Shown in pieces: positions 13,466 through 46,857 of a DNA stretch of 64,000 nucleotides (position 1 is the first letter of the stretch; each line of letters opens with the position of its first letter). The notes beneath the pieces are model-generated. The model was not told the origin of the DNA. It worked only from the letters and a program-made list of their open reading frames with translations, and made no database searches. The stretch covers positions 11,554,915 to 11,618,914 of the forward strand of contig NC_057752.1 of assembly GCF_004010195.1 (NCBI RefSeq). The letters are read 5' to 3'. A program made the position numbers and the translations under genes. The stretch is from Chiloscyllium plagiosum (Eukaryota).

Positions 13466-13780
13466 GGGGATTCTGTTGCAATCAGTAGCTTTAGGGATAA
13501 CCACATAATGTATAACAATCTGTCTGATTGTCCTAAAAGACTTAAACCTATTAATCAAAGCATAATTGATATCTTTGAATTTATGGAAAGGAATGTTGTT
13601 TCAGCTGGAATCCAAGATATAATGGCGGAGCAGTAAAACCTGTAAATCTCCAGCCAACCAGCCACATCCCACAGGTATTTCTGGTGAAGCCAAACTCCTT
13701 CCATCCCTTTTTTGTATGTGACACATGGGATTTTTGATCAATCCCTTTTGTTTTACTTTTGAATTCTCTCTCCCCCACAG

Positions 13781-14676
13781 TTAATTTACTTGTGATTGTT
13801 ATTCTTTCCCGTGTCAAGTGTGGTCTCTCCACCTGCACCACTTGCTACTTGGTTGCCGTGTCAACAATGGATCTGCTGTCTACTATCACTAACACCATCC
13901 TGAAGCAAATTATTCCTTTATATATTTCACAAGACTCTTGCCTGGTTCTCATCCCTGTTTGGAGATTTTTGCATGCCTTGCATTTTATGATCAGAGAGTC
14001 CTCTGTCTGGTTCACTGTCTTCTTCTCTTTTGATCGATTTGTGGCCATTTGTTGCCAGAAGCTAAAAACAAAGTATTGTACTGAGAGAACTGCAAAGGCG
14101 ATTCTAGCAACAACCTGCATTCTATTCTGCTTCAAAAATGTGCCTATCTACTTTAAATATGAACCTCGGTATCTAGTTAACAATGTGCCCTTGAAATGTA
14201 AACTGAAGAAAATCTATTTGACTGAGGCAGGATGGAGAGGGTATGACATATTTAACAAGCTTATAACCCCTTTGCTCCTATTTGTATTAATTCTGTTACT
14301 CAGCACTCTGACAGTCAAGCACATTTTAGTAACGAGTCGAGTCCGTAGGGGACTGAGGGGTCAGAATAAAGGAGAGAGTCACAGTGACCCCGAGTCAGAG
14401 AACAAAAGGAAGTCAATTATTTTGCTCTGCACCATTTCCGGCAGTTTTCTACTTCTATGGATGGGCTTCATTCTAAATTTCATACGTTACAGCATCAGAA
14501 GAGATCATCTAATTGAAGCTATCAAAATACGTAGAGACATTTCAATTATTTGGTGGAATGTTAGTTCTTGCACAAATGCCTTTATTTATTTGGCAACGCT
14601 ATCCAAGTTCAGGCAGCTGATCAAGGACACTTTGAAATCTTTGGTTGCACCAATTGCTCGATTAAAAAAGAAATAA
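13781..14676 (+). CDS. GPR139/GPR142-like class A GPCR, main coding exon (exon 2); exon 1 not located
   Basis: Acceptor tctctctcccccacag at 13780, then VNLLVIVILSRVKCGLS; SVWFTVFFSFDRFVAICC (TM3) and SSCTNAFIY (TM7); uninterrupted to TAA. Confidence 0.8.
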
Positions 14677-18945: not shown

Positions 18946-20969
18946 GAATTTGACAGAATGAATTCACTGACTGGGTGTCTGTTGAGTGGGGATGACTCGA
19001 TCAGCCATGTTCAGTCACAGTGTGACAGCAGGAAACCAGACCCACATTGATTCAGGCAACCTCAACAATTCCAGGCATTGTTATTCAACCTGCACAGTGA
19101 TGTGAGAAACACATGGGGAACAGGGGGAGCTTGCACCAAGGCCTGCCAGGGTATGGTAAAGAGATAAAGACAAATCAAAGACTAGACACAAAGAAAACAT
19201 TGAACCCCTCTGCCCCCCTCCCCCCAGATATTCAATTGCGCATTGTCTCTGCTGACAGAAAGTGAAACATTCACCCAAACATGAAATAACAGTTCGGCAG
19301 GTCACCTCATGTCCTCTTCTGCTTTGGATACTTTAACCACAGGATATTTTAGTTTGTATTTCCATGTGAAGATAATTCTACAAAAGTCTCTCATGTGTCT
19401 TGTTTGTCTTTCTTCTGTGATAGAATGTACACGTGCGTAGATTATTTTGAGAAATACTTGAAGCTTTCAGATTAGTAATTAATCATCGATTATCCATTGA
19501 TGAAGGATAGATTTGTTACAGAAAACATTATTTCTGTTTACTTGCTGTATTATTCTAAATTTTAGTCTGCGAACCAGTTTCCTTATTTTAGATGGAGATC
19601 AGCAAGGTATTAACTATCTGTAAGTATTTCATATTTGAGGTGACTTGTGGATGAGTGTATGTTGATTCCCAGTGTAATGTTTCCATCATGTCTGGGACAC
19701 TGTCCTTAATCCATGGTTGTATATTGCCAGCAATCCCGTGCACATTCATATTGTTTCCCGTGAGGCACTTTATCAAAAGCATTCTGATAATCCCAATACA
19801 CCACATCCAATGCTTCACCACATCAACTCTGTCAGTAACATCTTCAGGAAAATATCTCAGTTCCCTTCCCTTCGCAATACAGTGCTGCCTCTGCTGAATC
19901 AGAGAATGGTTTTCTACTTATAAAATAATTGCTTGCTCTGTAATATATTAATCACCTTCCCAACGACTGAGGTCAGATGAACAGATCTGCCACTGCCATT
20001 TTTATTGTCCAACCTTTCTTAAACAATGATGGAGCGTTTTCAAAATGCTAAAGAGTTGTCCGCATTGAGATATTGATATCATTCAAAATGTGATGATCAA
20101 TGTACATGGTGAAAATCTTCATGTGATAATCACTCTCTCTGTCCACATCTTTTTCACCTCTCTCAGGCAAAGACTAATGGGTCCCCTCACGGTGTCAACT
20201 TTCAGACTCATGAATTTCTCGAATATCAATTCTCTATAACATTGAATTTCTTTCAGTTCCACACTTCACTGGATCATTGAATCGTGTTTGGTTTGGGGAG
20301 ACTTCCTGTTTCTTTCATTTTTAAGACAAAGTACTAATTTCGCTTCTTTACCATTTCTCTCTTTCCCATTATAAAAATGTCTGTCTCTTCACGGAATTGA
20401 CCCACACTAATCTTTCTTCATCTGTTTTGCTGAACATTGTGCAATCATCAGCGAACATCCACCCCTTTGACATGATGGTGGATGCAGTGTAAAATGGTTC
20501 AGCCTGAGGTAATCCTGCAGAGATGGTTTGGAGCTGAGTCACCCATTCCCCAAACAACTACAACCATCTTCCATTATCTTCCATCAGGCTCCGAACAGAG
20601 GAGAGACTGCCCCCTGGTTCACATTGACTCCAGATTTGTGGTGGCTCTTTTCCTACAAATTACCAACTGGCTCCTTGATGTCAAGGACAGTCACTCCTAC
20701 CTGTTCTCCAGTGTTTGTAATTTGTAATAATAACAGGAAATCATACCATGGTAATCCTACTTATGACTGGATCATGAAGATTTCCACCTTAATATTTTCG
20801 TGACCTTAGTGATAGAAGAGTGGGAAATCTGCTGCCTGGTAAGAATTAATGCAATTAGTAAAGCTAATTGTACCTACTGAGCCAAGACTGTATGAGGCTC
20901 ATACGCTTGAAGCTTCAGAATAGTGGGTACATAGTTAACAGAGAGCCAGGGCAAAAATGCGTTAATTTG

Positions 20970-22440
20970 TAAATGTTTATGGAGAGGCCAGCCGAGTGGA
21001 ATGTGCAGCTTGTCACAAGTGGGGAATCCTGGACACTGTCAGTGTCCGAGATGACCACATGTGCAGGAGGTGTTCCCAGCTGCAGAAGCTGGAGCTCTGG
21101 GTCTCAGAGCTGGAGCAGAAGTTGGAGACACTGTGGCACATCCACAAGGCTGAGAGTGACATGGACAGCACATTTAGAGAGGTGGTCACACTGCAGCTCA
21201 AGGGACTAGAGGGAAGAAGGGAATGGGTGACCACCATACAGTCCAGAAATCACAGGCAGGTAATGCAGGAATACCCTGGGGTCGCCCTCACTAACCGGCA
21301 TTCCATTTTGGAAGCTGATGTGGGTGCTGGTACCTCAGAGGAATGCCAAGCTTCTGGCACCACAAGCGGCTTGACTGTACAGGGGGAGGAATAAAGGAAG
21401 AGGATTAGTGATAGGGGATTCTTTAGTCAGGGGAGCAGACATCTGCACCCAAAGATGTGACTCCAGGATGGTGTGTTGCCTCCCTCGTGCCGGGGTCAGA
21501 GATGTCACTGACCCTGGCACATGGGTGCAGGGCATCCTCAAAGGATTGGGTGATTGGTTAGAGGGTGGGCAGTATATTGGTCCCAATGATCTGGGCAAAG
21601 TGAGGAATGACAGCATGCATCAAGATTTCAGGGATCTCGGCAGGAGATTAAAAAGCAGGACCTCAATGGTTGTAATCCATGGATGATTACCAGTGCAACA
21701 TACCAGTGAGTACAGAAATAGGAAAATTGGACAGATGAACACTTTGCTCATGACTCCATGCAAGAGGGAGAGTTTTAGATTCCTGGATCACTGGGACCAT
21801 TTTTGGGAAAGGTGGGACATTTGTAAAGAGGACGGTTGGCACCTGAACCACACTGGGACCAACATTCTTGCAGGTAGGTTTGCTAGTTCTGTTGGGAGGA
21901 ATTTAAATGAGTCTGGCAGGGGGAGGCGACACAGGATATTGATGAAATAGAGACACATCATGCTACAGCAAAGGAAGCAAGTCAGAGTGAGTTCAGCTAC
22001 GTTTAGTGTCAAGAGAGTAAGGCAAGGTTGGATGGTCTTAACTTTAACATGAGGAATGTAATAGGTCAGATTGACATGTTATTGGTGTGGATTGACACAT
22101 GAAAGTACGATGTTGTTATCATCACAGAAACATGGTTGCGGGAAGGGCTGGCCTGGCAATTCAACATTCCTGGGTACAGGACCTTTAGGCGAGACAAAGG
22201 AGGGTGTACAAAGGGTGGTGGTGAAACACTATTAATGAAGGAGTCAATTACTGTAAGAAGGAGAGATGTTATCTTCGATGGGTCCTCAAACAAGGCTTTG
22301 TGGGTAGAACGTCGGAATGTTAAGGGGACAGCTACTTTACTGGGAGTGTACTATTGGCCCCCAAAGCGTCAATGGGAAATAGAGGAATAAACATGTAAAT
22401 GGTTCACAGAGATGTGAAAGAATAATAATCGGTAATTGTA
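20970..22440 (+). mobile_element. CR1 LINE fragment (ORF1 and start of endonuclease)
   Basis: MECAACHKWG...HMCRRCSQL; IGDSLVRG (GDSL-esterase-like); HLNHTGTNILAGRF; paralog at 41600-43030. Confidence 0.85.
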
Positions 22441-22714: not shown

Positions 22715-22882
22715 ATGTACTCCAGCTCCAACAGTGCCCACCGGTCTCTAAATGCCTCGACGATGCTGGTGATGACCAGATGCTCCCTCTCTAGGGAGAC
22801 CCGAGGGCAGATGTAACCGTGAAAGAGGGGCAGACAGTCAGGAGTGACAAGCCCCTCCTATGCCTGCTGCTTGGACCTGTTA
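22715..22882 (-). mobile_element. Tx1/L1-like LINE 3' remnant, fused to GPCR copy A
   Basis: Homologous to 43320-43471 of the longer Tx1-like remnant. Confidence 0.55.
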
Positions 22883-23663
22883 CAGTTTATATCCCGGAGC
22901 ATATTTGCGACATATCTGAAGACATATTCAGAATTATTGTCTAATAATGGATCTAAGGTATTAAAATATTTCAAAAGGTACCACATCCATAGAAGGATGA
23001 AACTACTGGATATTGCGAAGAGTAAAATGATAGACTTTCTTCTGCTCTCCATCTCTGGGTCACAATGATTCTGCCCCTTGCTGTGATCCCTCAGTCTCTT
23101 ACGGGCCCGACTGGCCACTAAAATGTGCCGCACTGTCAGAGTGTTAATCAACAGAACTAAAGCAAATGGGAGCATTGGAGTTAAGACCTTTTCAAATCTA
23201 TTGAATCCTACTCGTACGGGATCACTATAATATGCTTCAGTATTGGTGCAGAACCACTCGACATTGTTAATGATTCGTTTAGCTTCGTACCTGAAGTAGG
23301 TGGGAATGTTTTTGAAACAGAGCAGAATGCCTGTTGTTGCTAGAACCACTGTCGCAGTTTTCTTGGTGCAATATTTCATTTTCAACTTCTGGCAACAAAT
23401 GGCAACAAATCGATCAAAGGTAAAAGTGACGGTGAACCAGACAGAACAATCGGTGGCAGCACGGCGCAGGGTGTAGTGAACTCTGCAGACAGTCGTCATA
23501 TCCAAGAAATTCAGAGGGAAATAATAATTATTGATCCGGTACAGTATGACCTCAAGGATAATGTAGAGCAGATCCGCTGTCACCATGGCAACCAGATAAC
23601 ATGTGGTGCATTGGGAGATTCCACATTTTCCGCTGAATAAAATCACAAGTGCTAGTAAATTCA
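22858..23663 (-). pseudogene. GPR139-like GPCR copy A, exon 2, truncated within TM7
   Basis: Acceptor ctctctcgcag, then VNLLALVILFSGKCGIS..FDRFVAICC; ends MLRDINC-NRSKQQA* at a deletion junction. Confidence 0.8.
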
Positions 23664-24139
23664 CTGCGAGAGAGTGAAGGGAAAGGGAATTAGAAATTAC
23701 AGAAAAAAAGTTTGCAGTTTCTGAGGACAGTCCATTTAACAAAACAAATCAGCCATGCCTTCAACAGGTCTCCAAGGTGGACAGATCAGGGTAAAGTTCA
23801 GGTTGAACAGGTATCAGTCAGAGGGGTGTAACGGGCTGCTCACCATATTCCAGTGGGGAATTGTGTGTCTGAAGCTGAAGAGGTGCAACTTTGGAGTAGA
23901 CCCTCTTCCCCACCGGCTGCAGCGTGTTCTATTTCCTTTTCTGTTGCAAAGTGTGTTACCTGCCAAGAAATACTCACTACCCCATTAGACTCACCCTCTG
24001 AATTGGGTGTCTGTCCTTCACACGTCATATTTTGTGGTCTTACCTCCTGTAGGTCAGCCTTACTCACCGCTATTTTTAACTCCACCCGCAACTCCCCAGC
24101 CTTGTTAACGAGCCCATCCTTTTTGGTAATTTACAAAAC

Positions 24140-26074: not shown

Positions 26075-26405
26075 TTCATTATAGAATCCCTGCAGTGTGG
26101 AAACAGGCCAGCATCTGGCCCAACAAGTCCACACTGACCCACTCAAGAGTAACCCACCCAGAACCATTCCACTATCTTATTCCTGACTAATGCACCTAAC
26201 TTACACATTGCTGAATAATATGGGCGATTTAGCATGGCCAATTCACGGACCCTGCACATCTTTGAATTGTGGGTGGAAACCAGAGCAAACCCACGCAGAA
26301 ACAGGGATGTGCAAATTCCACACACGCAGTGGCCTGAGGCTGGAATTGAAACGGGTCCCTGGTGCTCTGAGGTAGCAATGCTAACCACTGAGACACTGTG
26401 CTGCT
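26075..26405 (-). mobile_element. HE1-like SINE
   Basis: Same consensus as 760-1100; paralog at about 46960-47265. Confidence 0.75.
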
Positions 26406-26534
26406 CTAAATGATTGGGCCCGCCCCAGTGGCAGGTTTTGTCACAGGGTCTGTGCTGACTGGGTCAGCTCTCTGTAAGAGCAGCCCAGCTTGTCTCAATC
26501 AGCAACCCCACTTCAACCATCACTTCACTGTTTC

Positions 26535-27053
26535 CCTCGGCCAGATCAGGAGTAATGTGACCAGTTCTGGTCACCCTCTTATAGAAAGGATAAAATTAAG
26601 CTGGAGAGTGTTCAGAAAAGATTTACTACGATATTCCCAGGAATGGGAAGTTTCAATTGTAGGGAGAAGCTGGATAGGCTGGAACTGTTTTCACAGAATC
26701 GCAGGAGGCTTTGTAAAAGTATGAGGTGTATAAATGAGGTGAATGGAAGTTGTCTCTTTTCCCTCTGGTGGGGGATTTCCAGATTAGGGGCATATCTTTA
26801 ATGTGAAAGGAGAAAGATTGATAACAGACATGAGGGTATTATGCTTTGTGTGCAGAATGAACTCCCAGAGGAAGTGGTGGATGTGGGTACAGTTACAACA
26901 TTTAAAAGACATTTAGATAAATGGATGAATGTGAAATGTAGGGATATGGGCCAAGGGTGGGCAGATGGGATTGTTCAGTTTGGAATCATGGTCAGCATGG
27001 ACTGGTTGGACCGAAGGGTCAGTTTCCATGCTGTATGACTCTCTGACTCTATG
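26535..27053 (+). mobile_element. CR1 3' fragment
   Basis: NELPEEVVDVGTVTTFKRHLDKWM; tail gactctctgactctatga; paralog at 47395-47944. Confidence 0.8.
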
Positions 27054-27330
27054 ATTGAGCTGATTTGTCAATGCCCTTCAGATGCAATCTTTCTTACCCA
27101 CACTCCAAGACCGTTCATTTCACATCCCAACCACTACCCTGTTAAAGGAACGTTTTGCATCAGGGCACTATTTCTTTCATTGCCATTCAGTGTGTATCTG
27201 TGTCTTTGGTGAACTTTCCCCCAACTCCTTTTGCTCATTGTGGGTCTCTCTCTGCTTCTCTTATCTTTCTGAGTCTCTGCAATACAACTCTGGAAAATGG
27301 GATCTCTGTAACATTTCTCACCCTACACTC

Positions 27331-28490
27331 TGTGATGATGCTGTCACTTTAAAAGGCTATTTTGTCCTTGGATTTTTTTTGAAGAGTGTTCGTAACGGCA
27401 GAGGTCCCGAGGAGTCTGGAGAGTTCAACAGTGTAACAATGGAAAGGAAGTGGCCAGCTCTCCCAGATCAGGCTTTCTCCAGTTTTTTCTTTGCTGCAGC
27501 ATTCACAAGATGTTGGAGTCCGGAAATGTTGCAAGCTTCAGTAAAGGATTCCTCTGACTTTCTCTGAAATCTCTCTCTGGATGTTGTTCTCTCCTGCCTG
27601 TTAGAATCTGTGTTTCTATTTACCTTTCTGTGTCGGGCCGTGCTTATGGGATGTTACCGTATTGGAACAGCCAGTTAGGTAAGTTCCTGTCTCGGGTCAG
27701 TTAGGTTTGTTAAGGACCAGGCCAGACTCCCCTCAAAATATTTTAAGGAGGTAGCCTAGACCCTAACATTTTCTTATTGTAAAGGCAGATGTGAAATGGT
27801 TATTCCAGGTGTGATGCAGCTGGTCAAACCAGTCGGCTTTAAGCAAAACTTATTTAATTTAAGCACTACAGTTGAAGCACAAACTAAAGAAATCGGAATT
27901 TAGAATAAAATAACGACGGGCTAAATACTGGCAAATGAGACGAGATTGGGTTAGGAAATCTGGTCGGCATGGACGCGTTGGACCTAAAGGTGTGTTTCCG
28001 TGCTGTCCAACTCTGTGACTGTACTGGATAGCTTACCATATGTACTCGAGTAGTAGTCAGATCTCTTTGACTACTTTTTACATTTAAATCTATGGGATCG
28101 ACTGTGAAATGGATACTACTTTTGAGTGGCTGAAAACCATTCCGTATCATTAGCAGAAATCCAATTGATCGCTCAACAAATAAAGAGAAAAAATAATGAG
28201 TTACAGTAATGCTGAAAACCCAGAGATGGTGGTCTTTTCTCTGTGAAGAACTCAGGTTGACCTCTACACAAGATATATAAAAAATTCTAGATTTTTGGCC
28301 AGAAATAGGTGTCAACTTTTACATGCAATCGATTATTACCCGAGTATATATGGTAACCGACCCATTAGGGTAACTATTACTAATTAACTGTTCCAATACA
28401 GTAATATCTCATGAACACACCCCTTCGCAAAAAGGGAAATTCAAAAGTACCAAGGACAAAATAATCTTTTTAAAGTGACAGCATGGACAC
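27331..28490. mobile_element. Inverted pair of Gypsy LTR sequences; the right one is the 3' LTR of a minus-strand element whose interior runs into the gap
   Basis: tgtgatgatgctgtcactttaaaa at 27331 mirrors ttttaaagtgacagcatggacaca at about 28490; junction tgttaaggaccagg at 27707; the C-run after 28490 is a minus-strand polypurine tract. Confidence 0.65.
28036..28353. mobile_element. Tc1/mariner-superfamily (Tc2/pogo-like) MITE
   Basis: TA|ccatatgtactcgagta ... tacccgagtatatatgg|TA terminal inverted repeats with TA duplication. Confidence 0.7.
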
Positions 28491-28544
28491 ACACACCACC
28501 CCCCCCCCCCTCCTTTAAAATAATGAACCACCAAAATACAATGG

Positions 28545-29044
28545 NNNNNNNNNNNNNNNNNNNNNNNNNNNNNNNNNNNNNNNNNNNNNNNNNNNNNNNN
28601 NNNNNNNNNNNNNNNNNNNNNNNNNNNNNNNNNNNNNNNNNNNNNNNNNNNNNNNNNNNNNNNNNNNNNNNNNNNNNNNNNNNNNNNNNNNNNNNNNNNN
28701 NNNNNNNNNNNNNNNNNNNNNNNNNNNNNNNNNNNNNNNNNNNNNNNNNNNNNNNNNNNNNNNNNNNNNNNNNNNNNNNNNNNNNNNNNNNNNNNNNNNN
28801 NNNNNNNNNNNNNNNNNNNNNNNNNNNNNNNNNNNNNNNNNNNNNNNNNNNNNNNNNNNNNNNNNNNNNNNNNNNNNNNNNNNNNNNNNNNNNNNNNNNN
28901 NNNNNNNNNNNNNNNNNNNNNNNNNNNNNNNNNNNNNNNNNNNNNNNNNNNNNNNNNNNNNNNNNNNNNNNNNNNNNNNNNNNNNNNNNNNNNNNNNNNN
29001 NNNNNNNNNNNNNNNNNNNNNNNNNNNNNNNNNNNNNNNNNNNN
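28545..29044. other. Assembly gap (500 N)
   Basis: Run of N. Confidence 1.
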
Positions 29045-29059
29045 TCAGTGACTCACAGC

Positions 29060-29275
29060 CTGTGTCACCATCTCTACCACTCCATGTATCTTTCAGCCTC
29101 TCTCTCTATCTCTCTTCCTTGTCTCTCTTTGATATTCTGTCTCTCTGTCTCTCTCTCTCTACACCACAGTCTCTCTCTCTCTCTCTTTCTGTCATCCTAT
29201 CTTTCTATCCAATCTCTCTCTCATCTTGTCTTTGTCTGTGCCCCGTCTCTGCCTGTGCCTGTCTTTCCTCCTTTT
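29060..29275. repeat. Degenerate (CT)n microsatellite
   Basis: CT-rich low-complexity tract. Confidence 0.8.
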
Positions 29276-29955
29276 GCTACTGTAGTGATTGTAACAAGGT
29301 CAGTCAGTAGGATCTCAGAGAATCTGGTGGGATCAGCGGCCTCCATCTTGCCGCAGCAGCAGTGGGACTGGTGAGAGTGAGGAGGAAGGGGCTGCTGGGA
29401 AGGTCAATTAACCCTTTAATAACTTATCTCATGAATACGCGGATCACACGTTGAGCAGGAGCACACAAGGGACTGCTGAGTAAGTGAGGTAATATATTTG
29501 GGTGGTTGCTTTACCTAAAACACTACTTTGGTAGGGTCTCTCACCAATCCTACTCCTCCTCCTCTAGCCAAAAAAAAGGTTTTGTGCACCGATTCATTCA
29601 GGTAAGTAGTTGTTTCAATAGTCTGTTTGGGAATTCAGAACAATGGGAATGGATGTAAGGGCAGTTGCATGACCCTCCAGCCGGATGTGGGAAGTAAGGG
29701 TCACCACTCGTGTCCCCAATGACTTCATCTGTCAGAATTGCTCCCAGTTCCAGCTCCTCGGAAACTGTGTTAGGGAACTGGAGCTGGAGCTGGATGAACT
29801 TCGCATCATTTGGAAGGCAGAGGATTTATCATACAGGAGTTACAGGGACGTAGTCTTGAGGATCTAAAATTTGAATTTCGGCTGTTGTTAGAAGCATCGA
29901 GTGTATGCAGATTTCTATTAACGACTCCGCCGTCTCCAACCTTGCAAAGGGAGAG

Positions 29956-31753
29956 ATGATAAAGATCAAACTTGCCCTGCTGTGTGGACTTGCCATTGCC
30001 AGCATTGGTGCACAAGAAGGGACAGTTTACCTGTGCGATCCTGAGCAAACAGAGACTGTGCACCAACTATGCCAGGAAGATGTCCTTGTGTGCTGAGAGA
30101 CTGAATGTTACCAAGAATGACCATTGCAGTGATCAACTGCATCAAAAAGATTGACCAGTTCATTTACAGAACAAGTCTAAATGGTCTTTACTCTGTAAAG
30201 GTGTTGTGTGCCAGTTTGATTTCATTTGTACTATGGGCATCCCTGGTAAGCCTTGTTGCCTTTCAGATAGATCACGTAGTAAAAGAGACAAAGGGGGGTT
30301 TTATCCTTCACTAACAATTTGTTTCTAGAAACCCATAATAAAATATTTGGAGAGGATGAAATAGTTTGTTATGTCCTTACTTCAGCAACAGACTCCCTGA
30401 CCCCTTTTACCTTCTAAATCCTAGCATGGGGGTATAGAATAGTTCTAAATTATTTACAGGATTATGGACTTCCTCCAATAAATCCACGATATCCTATCCA
30501 AATTGCTACAATGGTAAGGGATGGGGGGTGCGCTATGTCAAAGTGCCTAAAATTATCCCCTGTGCTCTGGTAAAATGTATCAGTCGTCACTGCTTCCCTG
30601 AAGGATCTCGCAACTCGTGTGTATGCCTTAAGGAGGAATGTGTCTCTATTACCACTGCTATTCAAACCCTTTGTGGGGTGGGTAACAACACCCACCTTCA
30701 TTATGATACCTCTAATGGCACTAATATTTTCCCAATTATTGGATGGATAGAAACATTCTGGGATATTGGCCACGTCTCTTATCAAGAGACCCACCTCATT
30801 CGACTAAATGATTTTCAGCCTTTACGTTCGGGACCAAACTAAATAATCATGGATTACCCAGATACTCCAGGAAGTCACAAAGATAGGCCCGCTTCTTATT
30901 GGGAAGGTCCCTCCATTATCTATACTAAACCTGGATATTATTTTTTCAGTGATAATAACGCATCTAAATACCTTGTCCTGAATAGAACAAGTCCTCCTCG
31001 TGTTGTAGCTGTAGGAACACTATTTCCAACTATTGTTCCCTGTCCACTTACCTGGCAACGAGATTCAAATTCCCCTGTTAAACATTCAGTTTCTCCTGAC
31101 TTTTGTGCAGATTGGAAGAATCCAAAGGCCATATCAAGAAGTAAAACTCACTCATTGGCATATGCAGCTCTTAGTGTTCTTTCTGTAGGAGGGTCATCAG
31201 GAATTATTAGTCATCAAAACCGTAATTCCGTAATTAATCTCATTTGTGGACTCACGATTTTGGGAAATGAGACAACTGTTGTCCTAATAGAAATTAGTGA
31301 CATACTTTCAGAATTGTGCCTATTTACCCAACAAAACCGCTGTGCACTCGATTACATGCTTGTGAAAGAACGTGGAGTTTGTGCAATAGTCAAAGGAAAG
31401 TGCAACATGGAGGTCACTAATTTTATCGAAAACATTACTAGACATATAGATAATATCCGCACTTTTGTCAACCAAATGAATGAAGGTGCAGGATTGGGTT
31501 TTGGCTCATGGTACAACTGGCTAATCAATATGGCTATATATGCTGTTATTGTTTGAGTTGGTATTTTGCTGGTATTGCTATTGTTAACTGTATTATTGCT
31601 AAAATATTAGATTCTGTTGACATCATTGGTTCCACCCAGAAAATACTTCTTCTCCACTCAGCTGATGGTGAGGAAGCACCAGTGCCTGCCCCGGGTTACT
31701 CTTCGGAGGAAGAGAAAGTTTGGCAGTCATTCGCTGCCATCAAATTGGATTAA
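29956..31753 (+). pseudogene. env: Retroviral env pseudogene (signal peptide, Cys-rich SU, TM with immunosuppressive domain, anchor, tail)
   Basis: MIKIKLALLCGLAIASIGA signal peptide; ORF 30849-31556 with QQNRCALDYML..GVCAIVKGKC; W-rich pre-TM segment GSWYNWLIN; several stops and frameshifts. Confidence 0.85.
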
Positions 31754-31802
31754 TTTGATCCATGTCTTTATGATGTGGTCATGGAATGACCAAAAGGGGG
31801 AA

Positions 31803-32398
31803 TGAGGATCTAAAATTTGAATTTAGGCTGTTATCAGAAGCAACAGGTATATGTAGATTTTTATTAAGCGCAAAATGGCTTTTCAATTTAAAATAACACA
31901 ACAAAATGGCTGCAAGTAATGATTTGACTCTGTGAACATGAACCGATGCTTTGCTAAGTTGGTTGTATTTAGAGATAAGAAAGAACAATGGATTTTTCAT
32001 AATATGAATCCTAAGACAGTGATTTGGTATTCCAACTAACCTTGAACCGTTAGCATGGGATGGTGATCTACGTAAATTAAGAACCCTTTCCCAGGAAATA
32101 TCATTGGATTAACCTGCTGTACATCATGTCACCTTATTATATGTGATTGGCCTTTTCTTATAATTAAGGTTGCACTGTCTCTTTAAAAAATATGTAAATA
32201 ATGTGTAATTTTCGAATGTAATTGCGCCATTTCTCCAGGGAACACAAAAGCTTTTAACCTTCGTGTTGCTGGACAAATCTGCGTGAGGCTGCTTTAATTA
32301 ATTAAACTGGCAATTTTGCTTTAAACAGACCATTCTCCTCGTGATTCTTTTGACCGATCTCGAACCAAGAGGCCCCTGTGGAAGGGTCTAGATCTTCA
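31803..32398 (+). mobile_element. ERV 3' LTR (596 bp)
   Basis: TG..CA with a 10-bp imperfect inverted terminal repeat; preceded by the PPT; ATTAAA near 32301. Confidence 0.85.
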
Positions 32399-35300
32399 GT
32401 CTCACCTCAGGTACGAGAAAAAGGTAGATAGGTTACAGTCAAGGGGATGGAAAGGGAACAGGCAGTGAGTGCTGGGATTTGCTGTGGCCATCGCCTCTAC
32501 AGTAAATATACTATTTTGGATACTATTGCGGGGTGGGGATTATCTACCAGGGGAAAGCTATAGTGGCCAGGTTTCTGGCTCTGTGGCTCAGAAGGGAAGG
32601 GAGAGAATAGAAAAGTGCTAATCGCAGGGAACTCAATAGTGAGAGAAACGGACAGGAGATTTTGAGGTCGCGATCGGGATTCCGGGAAGGTATGTTGCTT
32701 CCCAGGTTCCAGGGTCTGGGATGTCTCTGATCGTGTCTACAAGATTCTGAAGGGGGAGGGTGAGCAGCCCAGAAATCATGGTGTGCATTGGCACCAATGA
32801 CACAGCTAGGAAAAAGAATGAGGGTCTAAAAAGTGACTTCAGGGAGTTAGGTTGGAAACTAAAAAGCAGGACAAGCAGAGTAGTAATCTCAGGATTACTA
32901 CTGGTGTCACGTGCTTGTGATGCGAGGAACAGGGAGCGACTGCAGTGAAACACGTGACGACAAGGTGGTTGCAGGAGGGAGGGCTTCAGATACATAGATC
33001 ACTGGGGTACCTTCTGGGGAATGTGGGACCTGTACATGAAGAATGGGCTACACTTAAACTAGAGGGGAACCAATGTCCTGGGTGGGAAATTTGTGAGAAC
33101 ACTTTGGGAGGGCTTAAACTAGTTTGGTAGGGTGATGGGAATCAGAGCTACAGATCAGAGGAGAGGGTAGTTGTTGAAGGGGCGCAAATAGAATGCAGAG
33201 AGTCTGTCAGGAAGGATACACAGTTGTTAGGCCAAATGGATGGGTTAAAGTGTGTCTGTTTCAATGCAAGGAGTGTCAGGAGTTAGAGTGGTGAAATTGG
33301 AGCATGGATCAGTACTTGGAACGACGGTGTTGTAGTCATAATGGAGACATGGATTTCAAAGGAACAGGAATGATTGCTGGATGTTCCAGGGCTTAGGTCT
33401 TTTATAACGAACAGGAGGGAGGAGCATTGTTAATTCGAGAGTCCGTCACAAATGCAGAAAAGGAGGTTGTTGAGGAGGGTTTGTCTTCTGAGTCAGTATG
33501 GGTGGAAGTCAGTAAAAGGAAAGAAGGAGTCACTTGATTTGGTGTTTTCTGTAGCACCACTTTCCCCCCCCCCCCACCCCAAATAGAAGCAGAGAGAAGG
33601 AAGAACAGATTGGACAGCCGATCTTGGAAGGTTGCAGATGTAACAGAGTTGTTGTTATGGGTGACTTCAACATCCCCAGTATTGATTGGAACCTCCATAA
33701 TGCAGATGGTCTGGATGGAGCCAATTTTATCAGGTGTGTCCAGGAAGGATTCCTGACTCAATATGTAGATTGGCCAGCTAAGGGGGAGGCCATATTGGTT
33801 TATGTGCTCGGTCCCGAGCCAGGCCAGGTGCCAGATCTCTCAGTCAGACAGCATTTCGGTGAAAGTGACCACAACTGCCTCACCTTTACCATAACCATGG
33901 AGAGAGTTGTGAACTGATAGCATGGGAAGGTATTTAATTCGGGGAGGGGAAATTATATTCCTATTAGACAGGAGCTGTGGATTATAAATTGGGAACAATT
34001 GTTCGATGGGAAATGCACAATAGAAATGTGGAGAATGATGGAGTACTTGTTGAACAACTTTGTCCCACTGTTACAGGCAAGGAGTGGTAAGGTGTAGAGG
34101 CCTTGGATGACAAGAGAAGAGGAGAAGGTTGAGCAAGCAAGGATCTGGAACAGCTTTACAGGATTACAGGGTAGAGAGGAAAGAACGCAAAAAAATGGAC
34201 TGAGGAGACCGAGGAGGGGGCACGAAAATGCCTGGGCAAGAAGGAGTAGGGAAAACCCAAAGGCGTTCTATACTTATGTGAGGAATAAGCGAATGATGGA
34301 GAGAGGGTAGGGCCGATCAGGGATAGTGGAGGGAACTTAAGCCTGAAGTGTGACGAGGTAGGGGAGGCCCAAATGAATTTTTTTGTTTCAGTATTCACTG
34401 GAGAGAGGGATCTTGTTGATAGCGAGAACAACATGGACCAGATTAATAGCCTTGAACAGATTGATATTAAGGAAGTGGATGTACTGGAAATTCTGTGAAG
34501 CATTAAGATAGTACCAGATATATCCAAGGTTACTTCGGGAAGCAAGGAATGAGATTGATGCACTGCTGGCGATGATCTTTGCATCCTCACTCTCCACGGG
34601 AGTAGTACTGGATGATTGGGGGGAGGTGAATATTGTTCCTCTGTTCAAGAAAGGGAATAGGGAAATCCCTGGGAATTACAGAAGAGTCAGTCTTATGTCT
34701 GTGATAAACTAGGTAGTGGAAAGAATTCTGAGAGATAGGATTTATGACCATTTGGAAAAACATAGTTTGATTAGAGATAGTCAACGTTGTATTGTGAGGG
34801 GCAGGTCATGCCTCTCAAGCCTTACTGAGTTCTTGGCGAGTATGACGAGACACGTTGACAAAGATCAAGCAATGTATGTGGTGTATATGGGTTTCAATAA
34901 TGCATTTGATAATATTCTCCACGGTAGGCTCATTCAGAAGGTGAGGAGGTATGGAATACATGGAAATTTGGCTGTCTGGATACAGAATTGGCTAGCCGCA
35001 AGAAGACAATGAGTGGTAGTGAATGGAAAGTATTCCGCCTGGAGGACAGTGACCCATGGTGTCCCGCAGATATCTGATCTTTTGGCTTCTCCTCTTTATA
35101 ATTTTTATAAATAACGTGGATAAAGAAGTGGAAGGGTGGTTTAGTACGCTTGCCGATGACACAAAGGTCGGTGCTGTCCTGGATAGTGTTGAGGACTGTT
35201 GCAGGCTACAACAAGACATTTACAGGGTGTAGAGCTAGCTTGAGAAGTGGTAGATGGAGTTCAACCTGGATAAATGCGACATGATTCATTTTGGAAGACT

Positions 35301-36009
35301 GAAATTAAAGACAGGATTCTTGACAGTGTGGAGGAATAGCATGATCTTGGGGTCCACGTGCATAGATCCCTCAAAGTTGCCACCCAATGTGATAGGGTTA
35401 TTAAGACGGCGTATGGTGTTTTGGCTTTCATTAACAGGGAGATTGAGTTTAAGAGCCGAGAGGTTTTGCTACTGCTCTATGAAACCCTGGTTAGACCTCA
35501 TTTGGAATATTGTGTCCAGTTCTGGTCACCTCATTCGAGGAAGGATGTATATGCTTTACAGAGGGTGCAGAGGAGATTTACCAGAATGCTGCTTGGACAG
35601 GAGAGCTTTTCTTATGAAGAGGGGTTGAGTGTGCTCAGGCTTTTCACACTGGAGAGAAGATAAAAGAGAGGTGATTTGCTGGAGGTGCACAAGGTAATGA
35701 GAGGCTTAGATAGAGTAGATAGCCAGAGACTTTTCCCCAGGGCATAAATGGCTGTGATGAGGCGTCATAATTTTGAGGTGTTTGGAGGAACGTAAAAGGC
35801 AGATATCAGAGGTAGGTTATTTACACAGAGAGTGGTGGGTGCGTGAAATGCACTGCCAGCAGTGGTAGTGAAGTCAGAGACAGACATTAGGGATTTAAAT
35901 AAGCGACTGCCGGACAAGTACATGGACAGCAGTAAACTGAGGGGTGTGAAGGTTAGGTTGATCTTAAATGAAGGTAAATGCTGGGCACAACATTGTGAGA
36001 TGGACCGTT

Positions 36010-37440: not shown

Positions 37441-37644
37441 CTATTTGTCTTCAGCATATAGAGATTGTATTGACATGATATAGCTTTGATGCTGACATTG
37501 AAAAGGAAGCTTGTAAAGTGCGTGAATGGGTGGGAACAGAAGATCATGTTAACATCGTTATACGCAGTGTACTGGGGATCATGAGATCACAGATAACAGT
37601 ATGCCGAATGTTAAGCAACTGTGCTACAAAAAAAAGACAACCTG

Positions 37645-38323
37645 CTGCGATATTATAGACCTCGGAACTTTAGTAACTGTTCATGGATTGGAAGAATCAA
37701 CAAAAGTGAAACTGTTGCATGAGAAAAGAAGCAGCAATGACTCTCTCTGGAAGAAACTGTTAAAGGACAGGGAGAAACCTATCCAGGAATTGGAAGGAGT
37801 TAGAATTGAAATCTCCCCGCCCAGGAATTGGGCCCTTTCCAATTCAGGTGCAAACCATCCTTCTTATAGAGATCACTTTTGCCCCAGAAGAGATTCCAAT
37901 AATCCAAAAATGGGAATCCCTACCCCCTGCACCAGCCCCTCAGTCTCGCATTGATATGCTCTAGCATCCTATTCCTGCCCTCACCAGCACGTGACACCTG
38001 GAGTAAACCAGGTTTCGTATCATTGACAAACCAATTTTTAACCTCCTGCCCAGTTTCTTAAAGGGAATTCTGAGGGCCGGGATCCAAATTCATTTGGAAA
38101 GACAAGAATTGACCAGGAAGTGTCAGTTCTCGATTCAACAAAATTAACAAATAAAGATGAGGGACTGTGATATTATAGACCTCAGAACTTTACTAACTGT
38201 TCATGGATTGGAAGAATCAACAAAAGTGAAACTGTTGCATGAGAAAAGAAGCAGCAATGACTCTCTCTGGAAGAAACTGTTAAAGGACAGGGAGAAACTT
38301 ATCCAGGAATTGGAAGCAGTTAG
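37645..38323. repeat. 159-bp direct repeat (37645-37803 and 38165-38323) enclosing a 317-bp inverted copy (37809-38125) of 36648-36964
   Basis: Direct sequence comparison by eye. Confidence 0.9.
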
Positions 38324-39145: not shown

Positions 39146-42100
39146 AACAATCTAACATAGCTGGTCATAAGTAGGACCAAACCTCCCCATGTCGTTCTGC
39201 TAAACTTATACCAACACACCCATGTACAGGATCATCTTCGTACTTACAACAATGAAATAATAGTCAGAGTGGCTGATCCCCCCAATGCTGCATAATCACT
39301 GGCCCAGAGTGTTTCACTCCAGTCAGTGACCATACTCAGACCCATCCTGTCTTGAGACATTGTCCCATAACACTCTTCCATTCTTCCCGACTTTTAGGTT
39401 TGTTAGAACAGCACACGGCATTCCAGTGATTCAATAATTTTATGATGAAGAGAAATCTCTGTGAGACGAGACCAGTTCAGGGAACAGAATCTATCCACAA
39501 CCATCGGACAGGGAATTTCAGAGAATGATTTCACTGACTGGGTGTCTGTTGAGTTGGGATGACTCAGTCAGCCATGTTCAGTCACAGTGTGACAGCAGGA
39601 AACAAGCCCCACATTGATTCAGGCAAATTCAACATTTCCATACATTTTTAATCAACTTAACAGAGATGTGAGAAACACGTGGGGAACAGGGGGAACTTGG
39701 ACCCAGGCTTGCTTTAGTTCAGTAGTAAGGACACATTAAGCTGCCAGGCTATGATAGGGGATAAATACATTTAAGGACTGGACAGAAAGAGAGAGACTAC
39801 TCCCCCAGCTATTCAGTTGTGTGTTGTCTCTGCCGACAGAACTGTGAAATATTCGCTGAAACCTGAAATAACAGTTTGGCAGGTCTCTTCATTTCTTCTT
39901 CTCCTTTGGATACTTTAACCACAGGATATTTTTGCTTGTATTTTCAAGCCGGCACTACTTCTACAAAATACTTTTACTCATGTGTCTTGTTGGTCTTTCT
40001 CCTGTGATTGAATCTGCGTGCGTGTTGATTCTTTTGGGAAATACTTGAAGTTTTCAGATCAGTAATTACTCATCGATTATCCACTTGTTAAAGGATAGTT
40101 TTGTTACAGAAAACATGATTTCTGTTTTCTTGCTATTTATTTTCAATTTTAGTCTGGGAAATGGTTTCTTTATCTTAGATGGAGATCAATGAGATATTGA
40201 CCATCTGTAAGTGTTTCATATTTGAGATGACTTGTGGATGAGTGTATCTTGATATCCAGTGCAATGTTCCCACCATGTCTGTGACACTATCCTTAATCCA
40301 TGGTGGTATATTCCCAGAAATCCCGTGCCCATTCATATTGTTTCCAGTGAGGCACTTTATCAAAATCCTTCTGATAATCCAAATACACCACATCCACTGC
40401 TTCACCACATCAACTCTGCCAGGAACATCTTCAGGAATTCCTCTCAGTTCTCTCCCCTTCACAATTCCGTGCTGCCTCTTCTGAATCAGAGAATGTTTTT
40501 CTACTTGTAAAATAATTGTTTATTGTAAAATAATTGTTTGCTTTGCAATAAATTAATCACCCTCCCAATGACTGAGGTCAGGTTTACAAATCTACCACTG
40601 CCATTTTCATTGTCCAACCTTTCTTAAACAATGATGAGCCTTTTCAAATGCTGAACACCTGTCCACATTGAGATATTGATATCATTTGAACTGTGATGAT
40701 CAGTGTATGTGGTGGAAACCTTTATGTGACAATCACTCTCTCTGTCGCCATTTTCTTTCAACTCTCTCAGGCAAATGCCAGCGGGTCCCCTCAATGTGTC
40801 AACTTTCAGTCTCATTAATTTCTCCAATATGACTTCCCTACAATATTGAATTTCTTTCAGTTCCACACTTGCCTGGATCATTGAATTGTGAATGTGTTAG
40901 GGAGAGTTCCTCTGTCTTTCATTGTTAAGGTAAACATAAATTACATCTTTCCCTTCTCTACTGCTTCTCTCTTTCCTATTATACATGCCTGTCTCTTCCC
41001 GGAATTGACCCACATTCATCTTTCCGAATCTGTTTCGCTGAACATTGTGCAACCATCAGCGAACATCCGTCCCTTTGACTTGTGGTGGATGCAGTGTAAG
41101 ATGGATAGCCTGGGATACTACACTGATGAAATCCTGCAGAGATGTCCTGGAGTTGAGTTACCCACCCCCAAAACAACTACAACCATCTTCCATTGTCTTC
41201 CACATGGCTCCAAACGGAGGAAAAACTGCTCCCTGATTCACATTGACACTGGTTTTGTGGGGGCTCTTTTCCTACAAATTGCCAAACGTCTCCTTAATGT
41301 CAAGGACAGTCACTCCTACCAGGTCTCCAGTGTTTGTAATTTGTAATACGAAGAGGAAAACATCACGTGGTAATCCTACGTAAAGATTGGAACATGAAAA
41401 TTTCCACCAGAATAGTTTCATAACCTTAGTGATAGAGGAGTAGGAAATCTGCTGTCTTTTAACAATTAATGCAGTTAGCAAAGCTAAGTGTACCTCCTGA
41501 ACCAAGACCATATACGGTCCAAGCCCTTGACATTTAAGAATATTGGGAACTTAATTTACAGAGAACCTGAGCAGAAAGGTGTTAGTTTGTAAATGTTTAA
41601 GACATGTGAGGAAAGGCCAGCCAAGTGGAATGTGGAGCTTGTCACATGTAGGGAGTCCTGGACATTGTCAGTGTCCGAGATGACCACATGTGCAGGAGGT
41701 GTTCCCAGCTGCAGAAGCTGGAGCTCTGGGTCTCAGAGCTGGAGCAGCAGTTGGAGACACTGTGGCACATCCACAAGGCTGAGAGTGACATGGACAGCAC
41801 ATTTAGAGAGGTAGTAGTCACATTGCAGCTCAAAGAACAAGAGGGAAGAAGGGAATGGGTGACCACCATACAGTCCAAAAAGAGCAAGCAGGTAGTGCAG
41901 GAGTCCCCTGGGGTCCCCCTCACTAACCGGTATTCTATTTTGGAAGCTGATATGGGTGCTGGTACCTCGGAGGAATGCAGTCAGAGCCAAGCTTCTGGCA
42001 CCACAAGCAGCTTGACTGTACAGGGGGAGGAATAAAGAAAGAGGGATTCTTTAGTCAGGGGAGCAAACATCTGCACCCAAAGATATTACTCCAGGATGGT

Positions 42101-44303: not shown

Positions 44304-45193
44304 TTATTGATGCTGACATTGAATAGTTCGCTTGAAAGGAAACATCAACGCATTTGTGAATTTTTCTCTGAACTTAGACAGTGTTGCTACATAAATAAGT
44401 GTGTTTGTGCAGCAGTTTATATCCCGGAGCATATATGCAACATATTGGAATATATATTCAGAATATATATCTAATAATGGATATAAAGTACCAAAATAAT
44501 GCAAAAGGTACCACATCCATAGAAGGATGAAACTACTGGATATCGCGAAGAGTAAAATGATAGACTTTCTTCTGCTCTCCATCTCCGAGTCACAATGATT
44601 CTGCCCCTTGCTCTGATCCCTCAGTCTCTTACGGGCTCGACTGGCCACTAAAATGTACCTGACTGTCAGAGTGTTGATCAACAGAATTAAAGCAAATGGG
44701 AGCATTGGAGTTAAGATCTTTTCAAACCTTTTGAATCGTCTCCATATGGGATCGTTATAATATGCTTCACTACTGGTGCAGTACCACTCGACATTGTTAA
44801 TGATTCGTTTAGCTTCGTACCTGAAGTAGGTGGGAATGTTTTTGAAACAGAGCAGAATGCCTGTTGTTGCTAGAACCACTGTCGCAGTTTTCTTGGTGCA
44901 ATATTTCGTTTTCAACTTCTGGCAACAAATGGCAACAAATCGATCAAAGGTAAAAGTGACAGTGAACCAGACAGAACAATCGGTGGCAGCACGGCGCAGG
45001 ATATAGTGAACTCTGCAGACAGTCGTCACATCCAAGAAATTAAGAGGGAAATAAGAATTATTGATCCGGTACAGTATGACCTCAAGGATAATGTACAGTA
45101 GATCCACTGTTGCCATGGTGACCAGGTAAGATGTGGTGCATGGGGAGATTCCACATTTTCCTCTGAATAAAATCACAAGTGCTAGTAAATTCA
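44304..45193 (-). CDS. GPR139-like GPCR copy B, exon 2 (intact)
   Basis: Acceptor cttctctcacag; VNLLALVILFRGKCGIS, VCRVHY, FDRFVAICC, WYC, NCCTNTLIY, helix 8 SKFREKF, stop at 44304. Confidence 0.85.
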
Positions 45194-46857
45194 CTGTGAG
45201 AGAAGGGAAAGGAGATTAGAAATTATAGAAAAAACATTCACAGTTTCTGAGGGCAGACCATTGAACAAAACAAATCAGCCATGCCTTCAACAGATCTCCA
45301 AGGTGGACAGATCAGGGTAAAGATCAGGTTGAACAGGTATCAGTCAGAGGGATGTAACAGACTGCTCACCGGTAGCAGCTCAGTACTTTAATATTCCAAT
45401 GAGGAATTGTGTGCCTGAAGCTGGAGAAGTGCAACTTTGGAGTAGGCTCTCTCCTCCCTCGGTTGCAATGTGTTTTATTTTATTTTGGGAAGTGCTTTAC
45501 CTGCAAAGAAATACTCACTACCCCATTGGACACCATCTCTGAGTTGAGTGTCTGTCCTTCACACATCACATTTTGTGGCCTTACCTCATGTAGATCAGCC
45601 TTACTCACCATTACTTTGAACTCCACCCACAACTCCCATCCATATTAACAAATTGTTGGGAATTTGCAAATCAGTCAGAGATTTTGCTTTCACTTCCAGA
45701 CTTGTTTCAGCAATGAGCAAAGTGTTTGTTGATGCATTAAATTCCAAGGAACCGGTAGATTTCCTTTTTTCCGTCATACTGTTTGGCATCCAGCTTCCAA
45801 TTGAACTGTGTCTCTGTGACGAGACTCCAGTTGATGTGAGGGTGGATGCAGGAAGAAAGCTCTGTAGATCTGTTCCCACTACTCCACATATCACCAAGTG
45901 AAATAAAACTCACAAGAATGCACATCATCAATTTACATTTCACACAAAATGATTTGTCAAAAACGTTCCTCAGCAAAAGCATTTTTTTTACAATGAGGAA
46001 AAAACATTCAACATGTATGGCATCTTTGATAAACATGGAATTCAGGAAGGTAGGGGAGTAAATGGTTATCGCAATTAAACGTACCAAAAGACAATCTCTC
46101 CCGCTCTGTCTCTCTCTCTCTCTCTCCCTCTCCTGCTTTCCCTCTCTTTCTCTCTCTCTCTCTCTCTCTTCCTGTTCCCGAAAGGAGCAGAGAACAAAAC
46201 AGGTTCTCTTTCAGACATGGAGAAATTCCAAAAGAACAGACACAGTCTGACTAACAGATTATTTGTGAACACAAAATGAAAAGGTTTTGGATGTTGCAAT
46301 GTAATTTGTTCTGTGTTTTTACACGTGGTTATGCCACTAACATGCACCTTTGCCACGCTGTCTTGTACATAGAGATTCTTCAGAAAATATAATGTTTTGA
46401 TGCTCTTCCAGGCATCCTTTCAAAATAAGGAATACGTTTCACTCTGAAATGATGTCATGGGATTTTTTGTTTCTGAATTGGGAGAGGTAATCTGGAGCAG
46501 CATTCTTACGGCAGCTTTCTCTCCAATTCAGCATGTTCTTAGCAGACCTTTCTCCAACTCAACTATATCCTCAGAACCTTCCCTCAACTCCAGTGTGTTC
46601 TTACCAAGCATTCTGCCAACTCAACACGTTTTAATGAGCTTCTGTGCAATTCACCTTGTCCTCAGCAGATCTCCTCCAAATGAATCCGATACAATAACTT
46701 CTCCAAGACAGTCATTGTTCAAAACATATTGACTCATGCAAACTCAACAATTTGAGACACACATGGGGAGCTTGTAACCAGGCCTGCTTTAGTTCAGGTG
46801 CAGGGACACTACCACTGCACCACAAGCACCATACCCTCAGCAATCACAGACACTTTC

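Follow-up and report, generated by a model that had tools for sequence, protein, structure and literature searches.

The question raised by this locus is whether the transmembrane subunit (TM) of a decayed shark endogenous retrovirus (ERV) was built on the plan of the filovirus fusion protein GP2. It lies in a 64,000-nucleotide stretch of the Chiloscyllium plagiosum genome (contig NC_057752.1, positions 11,554,915 to 11,618,914 of the forward strand; hereafter the window), where a first-pass annotation had described a retroviral envelope gene (env) with an internal, cysteine-flanked fusion segment of the filovirus GP2 and avian sarcoma/leukosis virus (ASLV) type. Its observations are confirmed in all details that could be checked, with small corrections concerning how far apart the cysteines lie, how canonical the furin motif is and how intact the gene is, and its interpretation is supported. 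We consider it highly probable that the region is the TM of a dead elasmobranch ERV env which, when intact, would have encoded a class I fusogen built like filovirus GP2. The sequence of the region, its genomic context, its conservation and its similarity to GP2 are direct observations. The recognizable parts of env, including the surface subunit (SU), are the following.

29956..31753, forward strand: env remnant comprising signal peptide, SU, TM and tail (from the open reading frame list, tblastn, and blastn to sister proviruses)
30438..30842, forward strand: Cys-rich C-terminal domain of SU with an in-frame TAA at its end (aligns to the intact relative P0001 from residue 247)
31074..31085, forward strand: degraded site of cleavage between SU and TM, reading P-V-K-H here (by comparison with sister copies)
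31086..31553, forward strand: TM ectodomain up to a premature stop (phmmer and profile matches to filovirus GP2 in the PDB)
31104..31247, forward strand: Cys-bounded loop, with Cys codons TGT at 31104-31106 and TGT at 31245-31247 (read from the sequence)
31266..31274, forward strand: N-E-T sequon for N-glycosylation where heptad repeat 1 begins (alignments pair it with that of Ebola GP2)
31320..31403, forward strand: stretch resembling an immunosuppressive domain, together with the CX6C loop (its Cys codons lie at 31380 and 31401)

The gene opens at 29956 with an ATG, after which comes a signal-peptide-like start, and ends at a stop codon at 31751-31753. Between these points it is interrupted by in-frame stops at 30094-30096, 30840-30842, 31554-31556 and 31608-31610 as well as by frameshifts, and P0001, a 646-aa relative with an uninterrupted env, aligns to it by tblastn at 30286-30399 and 30492-31541 in two frames. 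The TM sequence quoted in the first-pass annotation is present in a stop-to-stop open reading frame (ORF) of 237 aa (30843..31556, forward strand), which is an open piece and not an intact env. Within the Cys pair lies a hydrophobic, Gly-rich segment (31152-31208; highest mean hydropathy over 15 residues, 1.61), and an Asn at 31404 occupies the position of the third Cys in CX6CC proteins. Pfam matches to this copy fall under their thresholds: PF22307 (Ebola-like_HR1-HR2) scored 16.6 bits (E 0.0075; gathering cut-off 27) and PF00429 (TLV_coat) 13.4 bits (cut-off 22.5). Among sister copies, PF22307 reached 27.1 bits in L036 and 16-22 in the rest, and PF00429 up to 31 bits; precomputed PF22307 matches exist for the annotated proteins P0001-P0004.

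The internal, Cys-flanked position of the hydrophobic segment is upheld among the copies throughout the genome as well as in the intact relatives. Thirty-six locus rows aligned by tblastn represent 28 distinct genomic places besides the window (7 duplicates removed). Counted from the printed rows, the first Cys is retained at 23 of the 28 places, the other five reading Tyr, Ser or Phe, and the second at 25, with one Ser and two places unreadable through frameshifts. The annotated Cys pair does stand 47 residues apart, a spacing private to the window copy and its duplicate that stems from a 3-residue insertion common to the two; it is 44 in the other copies, 40-44 in other elasmobranch relatives, and 45 in five filoviruses (Ebola, Sudan, Lloviu, Marburg and Mengla). 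The N-x-T sequon at the start of heptad repeat 1 is found in most aligned relatives, in a near-invariant column.

Sequence comparison placed filovirus GP2 first among solved structures. Over 55 residues starting from LICGL, the window TM shares 23 ungapped identities with Ebola GP2 chain P0184, exactly the approximate count given in the annotation, and BLASTP against Ebola GP2 chain P0187 gave 32/80 identities (E 3e-14). A phmmer search of the window TM against 177,635 PDB sequences ranked filovirus GP2 at the top (E 6.7e-10, much better than chance), followed by Marburg/Ravn GP2 (~2e-7), the reptarenavirus-type GP2 4n21 (1.3e-4), ASLV TM (4.8e-3), and the TM of murine leukaemia virus (MLV) and the syncytins (0.02-0.25). 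A family profile (alignment A2, 14 rows) matched filovirus GP2 at 3.6e-20 (75 bits), ASLV TM at 1.2e-3 and MLV TM at ~1e-3. On cores of similar length, this profile gave 51.7 bits for Ebola 2ebo, 46.8 for 4n21, 26.4 for syncytin-1, 21.1 for an MLV-related core and 20.8 for ASLV. The proposal of a fusogen near the filovirus and reptarenavirus GP2 group thus agrees with the solved structures, among which these are much closer than ASLV or mammalian gamma-type TM. The ASLV comparison survives as a statement about architecture; as one about sequence it does not, the similarity being weak (E ~1e-3).

An exhaustive hidden Markov model (HMM) search of 1.84 billion representative proteins returned 912 proteins at E <= 1e-3, 151 at <= 1e-10 and 17 at <= 1e-30, far more than a word-indexed protein search, which found 5 relatives and no filoviruses. 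With an HMM of the TM only, family members scored above 100 bits and the Tapajos virus glycoprotein came next at 84.1. Internal Cys-bounded loops are also present in Tapajos virus, in the Env proteins of Anolis and Mabuya ERVs, and in further relatives. A scan of IMG/VR with the family alignment gave 16 pattern matches, none of which was confirmed by tblastn.

By homology with class I fusogens, the intact protein would work as follows. A proprotein convertase would cut SU from TM at the basic site 5-7 residues before the first Cys. The Cys pair, 40-47 residues apart, would then be bonded and would hold out the internal hydrophobic, Gly-rich loop, which would enter the membrane of the target. 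A trimeric coiled coil would be formed by heptad repeat 1, which would bear an N-glycan where it begins, and the immunosuppressive-domain stretch and CX6C disulfide loop would make the chain reversal. Heptad repeat 2 and the Trp-rich membrane-proximal stretch would pack back against the coiled coil, driving fusion.

Several results weigh against this reading of the TM. The disulfide, the cleavage and the fusion steps are predicted solely by homology, and the loop is supported by no structural model: the AlphaFold2 prediction of the window TM was unusable (pLDDT 44.6, from a 14-row alignment), and that of P0001, from 38 rows, was mostly below 50 pLDDT in the TM, with a mean of 61. The residues at the cleavage site read x-x-K-R, which is not a canonical furin motif, in most copies of the window's subfamily. 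The PDB holds no non-mammalian retroviral TM, so the filovirus-first ranking partly reflects sampling. With the TM-only HMM, mammalian filoviruses scored 64-66 bits, no closer than some ordinary Envs; the catshark Env P0021 (Scyliorhinus torazame) scored 80.7 bits and three similar Envs 70-73, and these four are ordinary gamma-type proteins with an N-terminal fusion peptide and CX6CC. The immunosuppressive-domain stretch (…KE-x-GVC) also resembles the motif of ordinary gamma-type TM. In the more careful of two trees, finally, the split between ingroup and outgroup had support of just 65/93, and the shark family joined Tapajos virus and the Mabuya ERV (91/76), not the mammalian filoviruses.

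The same scores, the gap in the PDB and the weakness of that split favour a different explanation, in which the likeness to GP2 reflects general conservation of the gamma-type TM core and the shark protein is an ordinary fish gamma-type Env with no tie to filoviruses. We regard this as unlikely, given that the internal Cys-bounded loop, with its filovirus-like spacing, is shared by the shark family and filoviruses and is missing in the ordinary Envs compared. The trees also bear on it. For a quick tree, 161 rows were aligned to the TM HMM and 29 were dropped (<80% coverage), leaving 132 rows and 96 core columns for IQ-TREE. Thirty-eight rows were separated from 94 ordinary CX6CC Envs with a Shimodaira-Hasegawa-like approximate likelihood ratio test (SH-aLRT) value of 97, which argues against the ordinary-Env explanation; branching inside the set was not resolved. 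The 38 rows comprise the shark/ray family, Tapajos virus and Mabuya, seven mammalian-filovirus rows, the Anolis group and four others.

The careful tree was built from 46 rows (36 ingroup and 10 outgroup) and recovered the mammalian filoviruses as a clade (100/99). It did not recover a clade of sharks plus mammalian filoviruses, a point in favour of the ordinary-Env explanation; forcing the two together cost 4.2 log-likelihood units and was not rejected by the approximately unbiased (AU) test (p 0.10). ASLV and reptarenavirus sequences were left out of both trees, and their scores come from the PDB searches alone. An independent Bayesian tree places the cartilaginous-fish ectodomains and those of filoviruses as sister groups with posterior probability 0.83, according to the text of PMC11521997. 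The trees are thus consistent with the part of the earlier proposal that puts the family in a common assemblage with filoviruses; a clade of sharks plus filoviruses is neither recovered nor rejected, and which lineage is the sister of filoviruses is not settled by them.

If the TM is of the GP2 design, cleavage should fall upstream of the Cys pair. The annotation had read P-V-K-H as a furin site that had lost its KR to CpG decay, and ELC as a decayed ELR. Both ancestries are confirmed by the sister copies: among 29 motif hits from 32 sources scanned, a few of them possibly spurious, the residue preceding SVS is encoded by CGT (R) in 13, CAT (H) in 8, TGT (C) in 4 and other codons in 4, and the residue following SEL by CGC (R) in 11, TGC (C) in 7, CAC (H) in 4 and other codons in 7. 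The furin site itself stands in its KR ancestry; the canonical R-x-K/R-R form is lacking in most copies of the subfamily and is seen in relatives. One subfamily copy reads R-F-K-R, and the open-frame relatives carry a canonical R-x-K/R-R-type site 5-7 residues upstream of the first Cys.

Cleavage could instead occur at …S-K-T-H, directly before the hydrophobic segment, which would make the fusion peptide N-terminal and the Cys pair incidental. The position of this spot, and its richness in Lys and Arg in the window's subfamily, would suit such an arrangement. It is never dibasic at P2-P1, however, in any of the 36 rows, and it is non-basic in P0003, P0004, P0005 and P0008. None of the open-frame relatives has a canonical basic site before the hydrophobic segment, and all have one upstream of the first Cys; the Cys pair, moreover, is conserved across elasmobranch orders and, at like spacing, in filoviruses. 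We therefore consider an N-terminal fusion peptide very improbable. None of the outcomes that the annotation had named as refuting its reading was observed: the intact relatives retain both cysteines without showing an N-terminal fusion peptide, and the match to GP2 is exactly as strong as the annotation had stated.

The annotation was also right that the motif is CX6C and not CX6CC: no Cys follows CX6C in any of the 38 aligned rows from this genome, nor in the elasmobranch relatives printed. The residue in that position is Asn in the window, Ile in most sister copies, and Ile, Met or Thr in relatives. Because the third Cys is missing, the usual SU-TM disulfide cannot form in this family. P0001 has 18 Cys in SU, without a CxxC motif, and 4 in the TM ectodomain, and these even numbers suggest that SU and TM would associate non-covalently. 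A subgroup represented by P0003 and P0005 has a CxxC in SU (CGQC/CGHC, at residue 174 of P0003 and 185 of P0005) where the window family and P0001 read C-G-x-G; its SU has an odd number of Cys, yet the third Cys of CX6CC is also missing there.

The retroviral nature of this env, as first annotated, is evident in the window from a polypurine tract (PPT), long terminal repeats (LTRs) and a 4-bp target-site duplication:

29853..29856, forward strand: target-site duplication, upstream copy, GTCT (read directly)
29857..29921, forward strand: 5' LTR remnant, the first 65 nt, starting TG (86% identity to 31803-31867)
31792..31802, forward strand: PPT AAAAGGGGGAA, 11 purines, directly 5' of the 3' LTR (read directly)
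31803..32398, forward strand: 3' LTR, TG...CA (aligns to the LTRs of L033 and L039)
32399..32402, forward strand: target-site duplication, downstream copy, GTCT (read directly)

From the LTR stump, the PPT, the 3' LTR and the matching GTCT flanks, it follows that 29857-32398 is a single integrated provirus, dead and internally deleted, in which the 5' LTR stump is followed by env, the PPT and the 3' LTR. The PPT-then-LTR arrangement is repeated in the sister copy L033. Alignment to other proviruses (blastn) picks up again only at ~29935, just upstream of env, and we conclude that gag and pol have been deleted; what is gone is everything from LTR base 65 to the start of env. The window copy cannot work: stops and frameshifts break it, the cleavage site carries a His, and gag and pol are gone. 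A co-opted host gene was considered for this copy and is ruled out by the stops and frameshifts.

The provirus sits in a long interspersed nuclear element (LINE), which flanks it at 29600-29856 and 32403-33100. The ORF1-like frame of the LINE stops at the insertion point on the upstream side. On the far side of the 3' LTR are a LINE endonuclease domain (33555-33917; Exo_endo_phos_2, E 1e-5, under its cut-off) and a LINE reverse transcriptase (RT; 34513-35874) that matches another LINE copy, in L040. L040 had itself been a candidate provirus; its RVT_1 is a LINE RT that matches this window segment, and L040 is not counted as showing linkage to pol. A duplicate of the locus as a whole, including its flanks, lies ~4 Mb away on the same contig (L035, G000:C43:15643500-15653499). 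Between window positions 26212-31747 and this duplicate, identity is 96.7% over the proviral part and just 88.6% over the upstream flank. An assembly gap of 500 N lies at 28545-29044, ~800 bp upstream of the provirus.

The provirus belongs to a large, old ERV family of elasmobranchs (sharks and a ray) with a gammaretrovirus-like class I pol. From 1852 first-look candidates, we drew at least 157 matches to the 160-aa TM of the window in the 3.56-Gb genome, at 42-100% identity. Sister copies carry gag, pol and LTR pairs. L033 has, in order, an LTR start, RVT_1, RT_RNaseH, RNase_H, Integrase_H2C2, MLVIN_C, env and an LTR, and L038 has a gag zinc knuckle (zf-CCHC), RVT_1, RNase_H and Integrase_H2C2, then env. 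The two LTRs of L034, whose starts are ~6.8 kb apart, are 94.2% identical over 503 nt, a divergence that indicates an old insertion. Against the PDB, the family RT best matched the enzymes of MLV and xenotropic MLV-related virus (XMRV) (1.4e-29; foamy virus 4e-14, Ty3 1e-12), as did the RNase H (1.5e-30; human immunodeficiency virus 5e-7), and pol is accordingly assigned to class I (gamma/epsilon-like). A 4-bp target duplication agrees with class I retroviruses. Annotated relatives at 42-49% identity occur in Heterodontus francisci and Pristiophorus japonicus, and remoter ones in Mobula birostris and Hemiscyllium ocellatum; the label "syncytin-1-like" on the Heterodontus relatives comes from the sources themselves. 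Filovirus GP2 being the best match among solved structures, one might ask whether this is a non-retroviral insertion of a filovirus GP gene, which we consider extremely improbable in view of the LTRs, PPT and 4-bp duplication in the window, the retroviral gag and pol that precede this env in sister copies, a copy number in the hundreds, and no other filovirus genes seen.

The SU of the family could be approached through the P0001 model, which contains a confident beta-rich domain at residues ~200-390, matching window positions 30438..30842. Foldseek of the model against the PDB gave no match at E <= 0.001. When residues 185-392 were compared with 48,161 chains by VIA-align, filovirus GP1 took the top three places (Z 6.7, 6.6 and 6.3), all SU matches being under Z 8, the level at which a match is clear. 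The Z 6.7 match had an rmsd (root-mean-square deviation) of 4.9 over 110 aligned residues, and syncytin-2 SU reached Z 6.1 with an rmsd of 2.8 over 82. A common beta-sandwich fold of orthoretroviral SU and filovirus GP1 is reported in a preprint by Hötzel (10.1101/2021.11.05.467493), as far as its covered part goes. Our model-based matches hint that the SU of this family shares the fold, without demonstrating it. Separately, residues 20-105 of P0001 form an extra N-terminal beta-sandwich that is closest to CUB-type domains, at a middling Z of 5-6; the start of the window env (29956-30096) aligns to the N-terminal region of P0001 by eye only.

The rest of the window contains other elements. Three intronless ORFs of ~300 aa match Pfam 7tm_1 with E values of 7e-16 to 4e-14 and form a small cluster of single-exon rhodopsin-family receptor genes around the provirus:

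13738-14676, forward strand: receptor ORF
22858-23748, reverse strand: receptor ORF
44304-45215, reverse strand: receptor ORF

A direct repeat of ~1.3 kb, in several blocks of 80-96% identity, occupies 20038-21346 and 40641-41978, 20.6 kb apart; its spacing is about that of two of the receptor ORFs, and a receptor-gene unit may have been duplicated in tandem. Another ORF (9507-10298, forward strand, 263 aa) has a weak RVT_1 match (E 6e-7) and is probably a further retroelement fragment. A pair of 175-nt sequences at 37629-37803 and 38149-38323 is 93% identical, with the two members 520 nt apart.

How the family relates to known systems can be stated feature by feature. Like filovirus GP2, its TM has a basic site for cleavage a few residues ahead of the first Cys, an internal hydrophobic loop between Cys residues, [LIV]-C-G/R-L…N-x-T where heptad repeat 1 begins, and an immunosuppressive-domain-like stretch with a CX6C loop. 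Unlike it, the shark family has only CX6C, whereas filoviruses have CX6CC and a GP1-GP2 disulfide (CC in all five); the loop sequences cannot be aligned, and the genomic context is retroviral and not mononegaviral. Tapajos virus and the lizard ERV Envs (Mabuya Mab2, Anolis) share the internal Cys-bounded loop and the lack of CC, but are at most about 26% identical overall to P0001, read CX7C in the rows printed, and come from squamate hosts. ASLV gp37 differs in its weak sequence similarity, its CX6CC and its class II pol, compared with class I pol in the family. Ordinary gamma-type Envs (MLV p15E, syncytins, fish ERVs) have in common with it the immunosuppressive stretch, Cys loop, heptad repeats and class I pol; they differ in the N-terminal fusion peptide right after the furin site and in CX6CC, and the P0001 SU differs from theirs in having no CxxC. 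Reptarenavirus GP2 (4n21) came second to filoviruses on the family profile among solved structures, at the 46.8 bits given above, but the published tree sets reptarenaviruses with tarsier ERVs and not with fish (PMC11521997, in its covered part).

The kinship of elasmobranch ERVs with filovirus GP2 was already published in 2024, and the window adds one more, degraded member. As described in the covered parts of PMC11521997 (Nat Microbiol 2024), filovirus-like ectodomains occur in retroviral elements of Chiloscyllium, Scyliorhinus, Amblyraja and Leucoraja, a description that the window's family fits. The sister position cited above is to the ectodomains of ebola-, cueva-, marburg- and dianloviruses; Tapajos virus groups with lizard ERVs (posterior probability 1.0) and reptarenaviruses with tarsier ERVs (0.98), and three independent captures from retroviruses are inferred there. 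In two rows of its supplement, a filovirus glycoprotein is the best reciprocal viral match (E ~1e-11). The terms "fusion loop", "fusion peptide", "cysteine", "CX6CC" and "disulfide" are all absent from its main text, the supplements being only partly covered.

Earlier papers, again as covered in part, bear on the loop itself. In 2013, PMC3758190 took a fusion peptide that is internal and Cys-flanked as the defining feature of the avian gamma-type TM, likened it to filoviruses and snake arenaviruses, and described such a peptide as unseen in retroviral TM outside birds as of that year. Filovirus and reptarenavirus GP2 are treated as gamma-type Env homologues in PMC9967133 (2023), which gives the glycan site of heptad repeat 1 as common to many non-mammalian Envs. 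A preprint (10.1101/2021.11.23.469661) catalogues gamma-type Envs from a range of hosts that includes six cartilaginous fishes, with CX6CC, CXnCC and CXnC variants, three fusion peptides called "novel", and new Envs whose TM N-terminus resembles neither the avian nor the gamma type. [quoted passage not shown] What therefore seems to be new is descriptive: that elasmobranch ERVs have this loop architecture, that the third Cys is uniformly absent, that pol is of class I, and that the family is abundant.

Retroviruses are regarded as the source from which filoviruses and reptarenaviruses captured their glycoproteins. Since squamate ERVs and ERVs of at least four elasmobranch orders have the loop, it may be an old retroviral device that filoviruses inherited whole from a retroviral donor, with an elasmobranch variant that works without the CX6CC disulfide; we hold this suggestion tentatively, at somewhat short of an even chance. 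Within the literature searched, neither such an origin of the loop nor the CX6CC-free elasmobranch variant was found in print. If the suggestion is true, the internal loop was not evolved by filoviruses themselves, nor is it the avian peculiarity of the 2013 account. The details of the architecture could help in choosing natural intact members for structural and fusion work. What the shark/ray family and filoviruses have in common is the fusion-loop architecture and not the helical core alone, and the nearest retroviral lineages bear on when, and in which hosts, glycoprotein capture took place.

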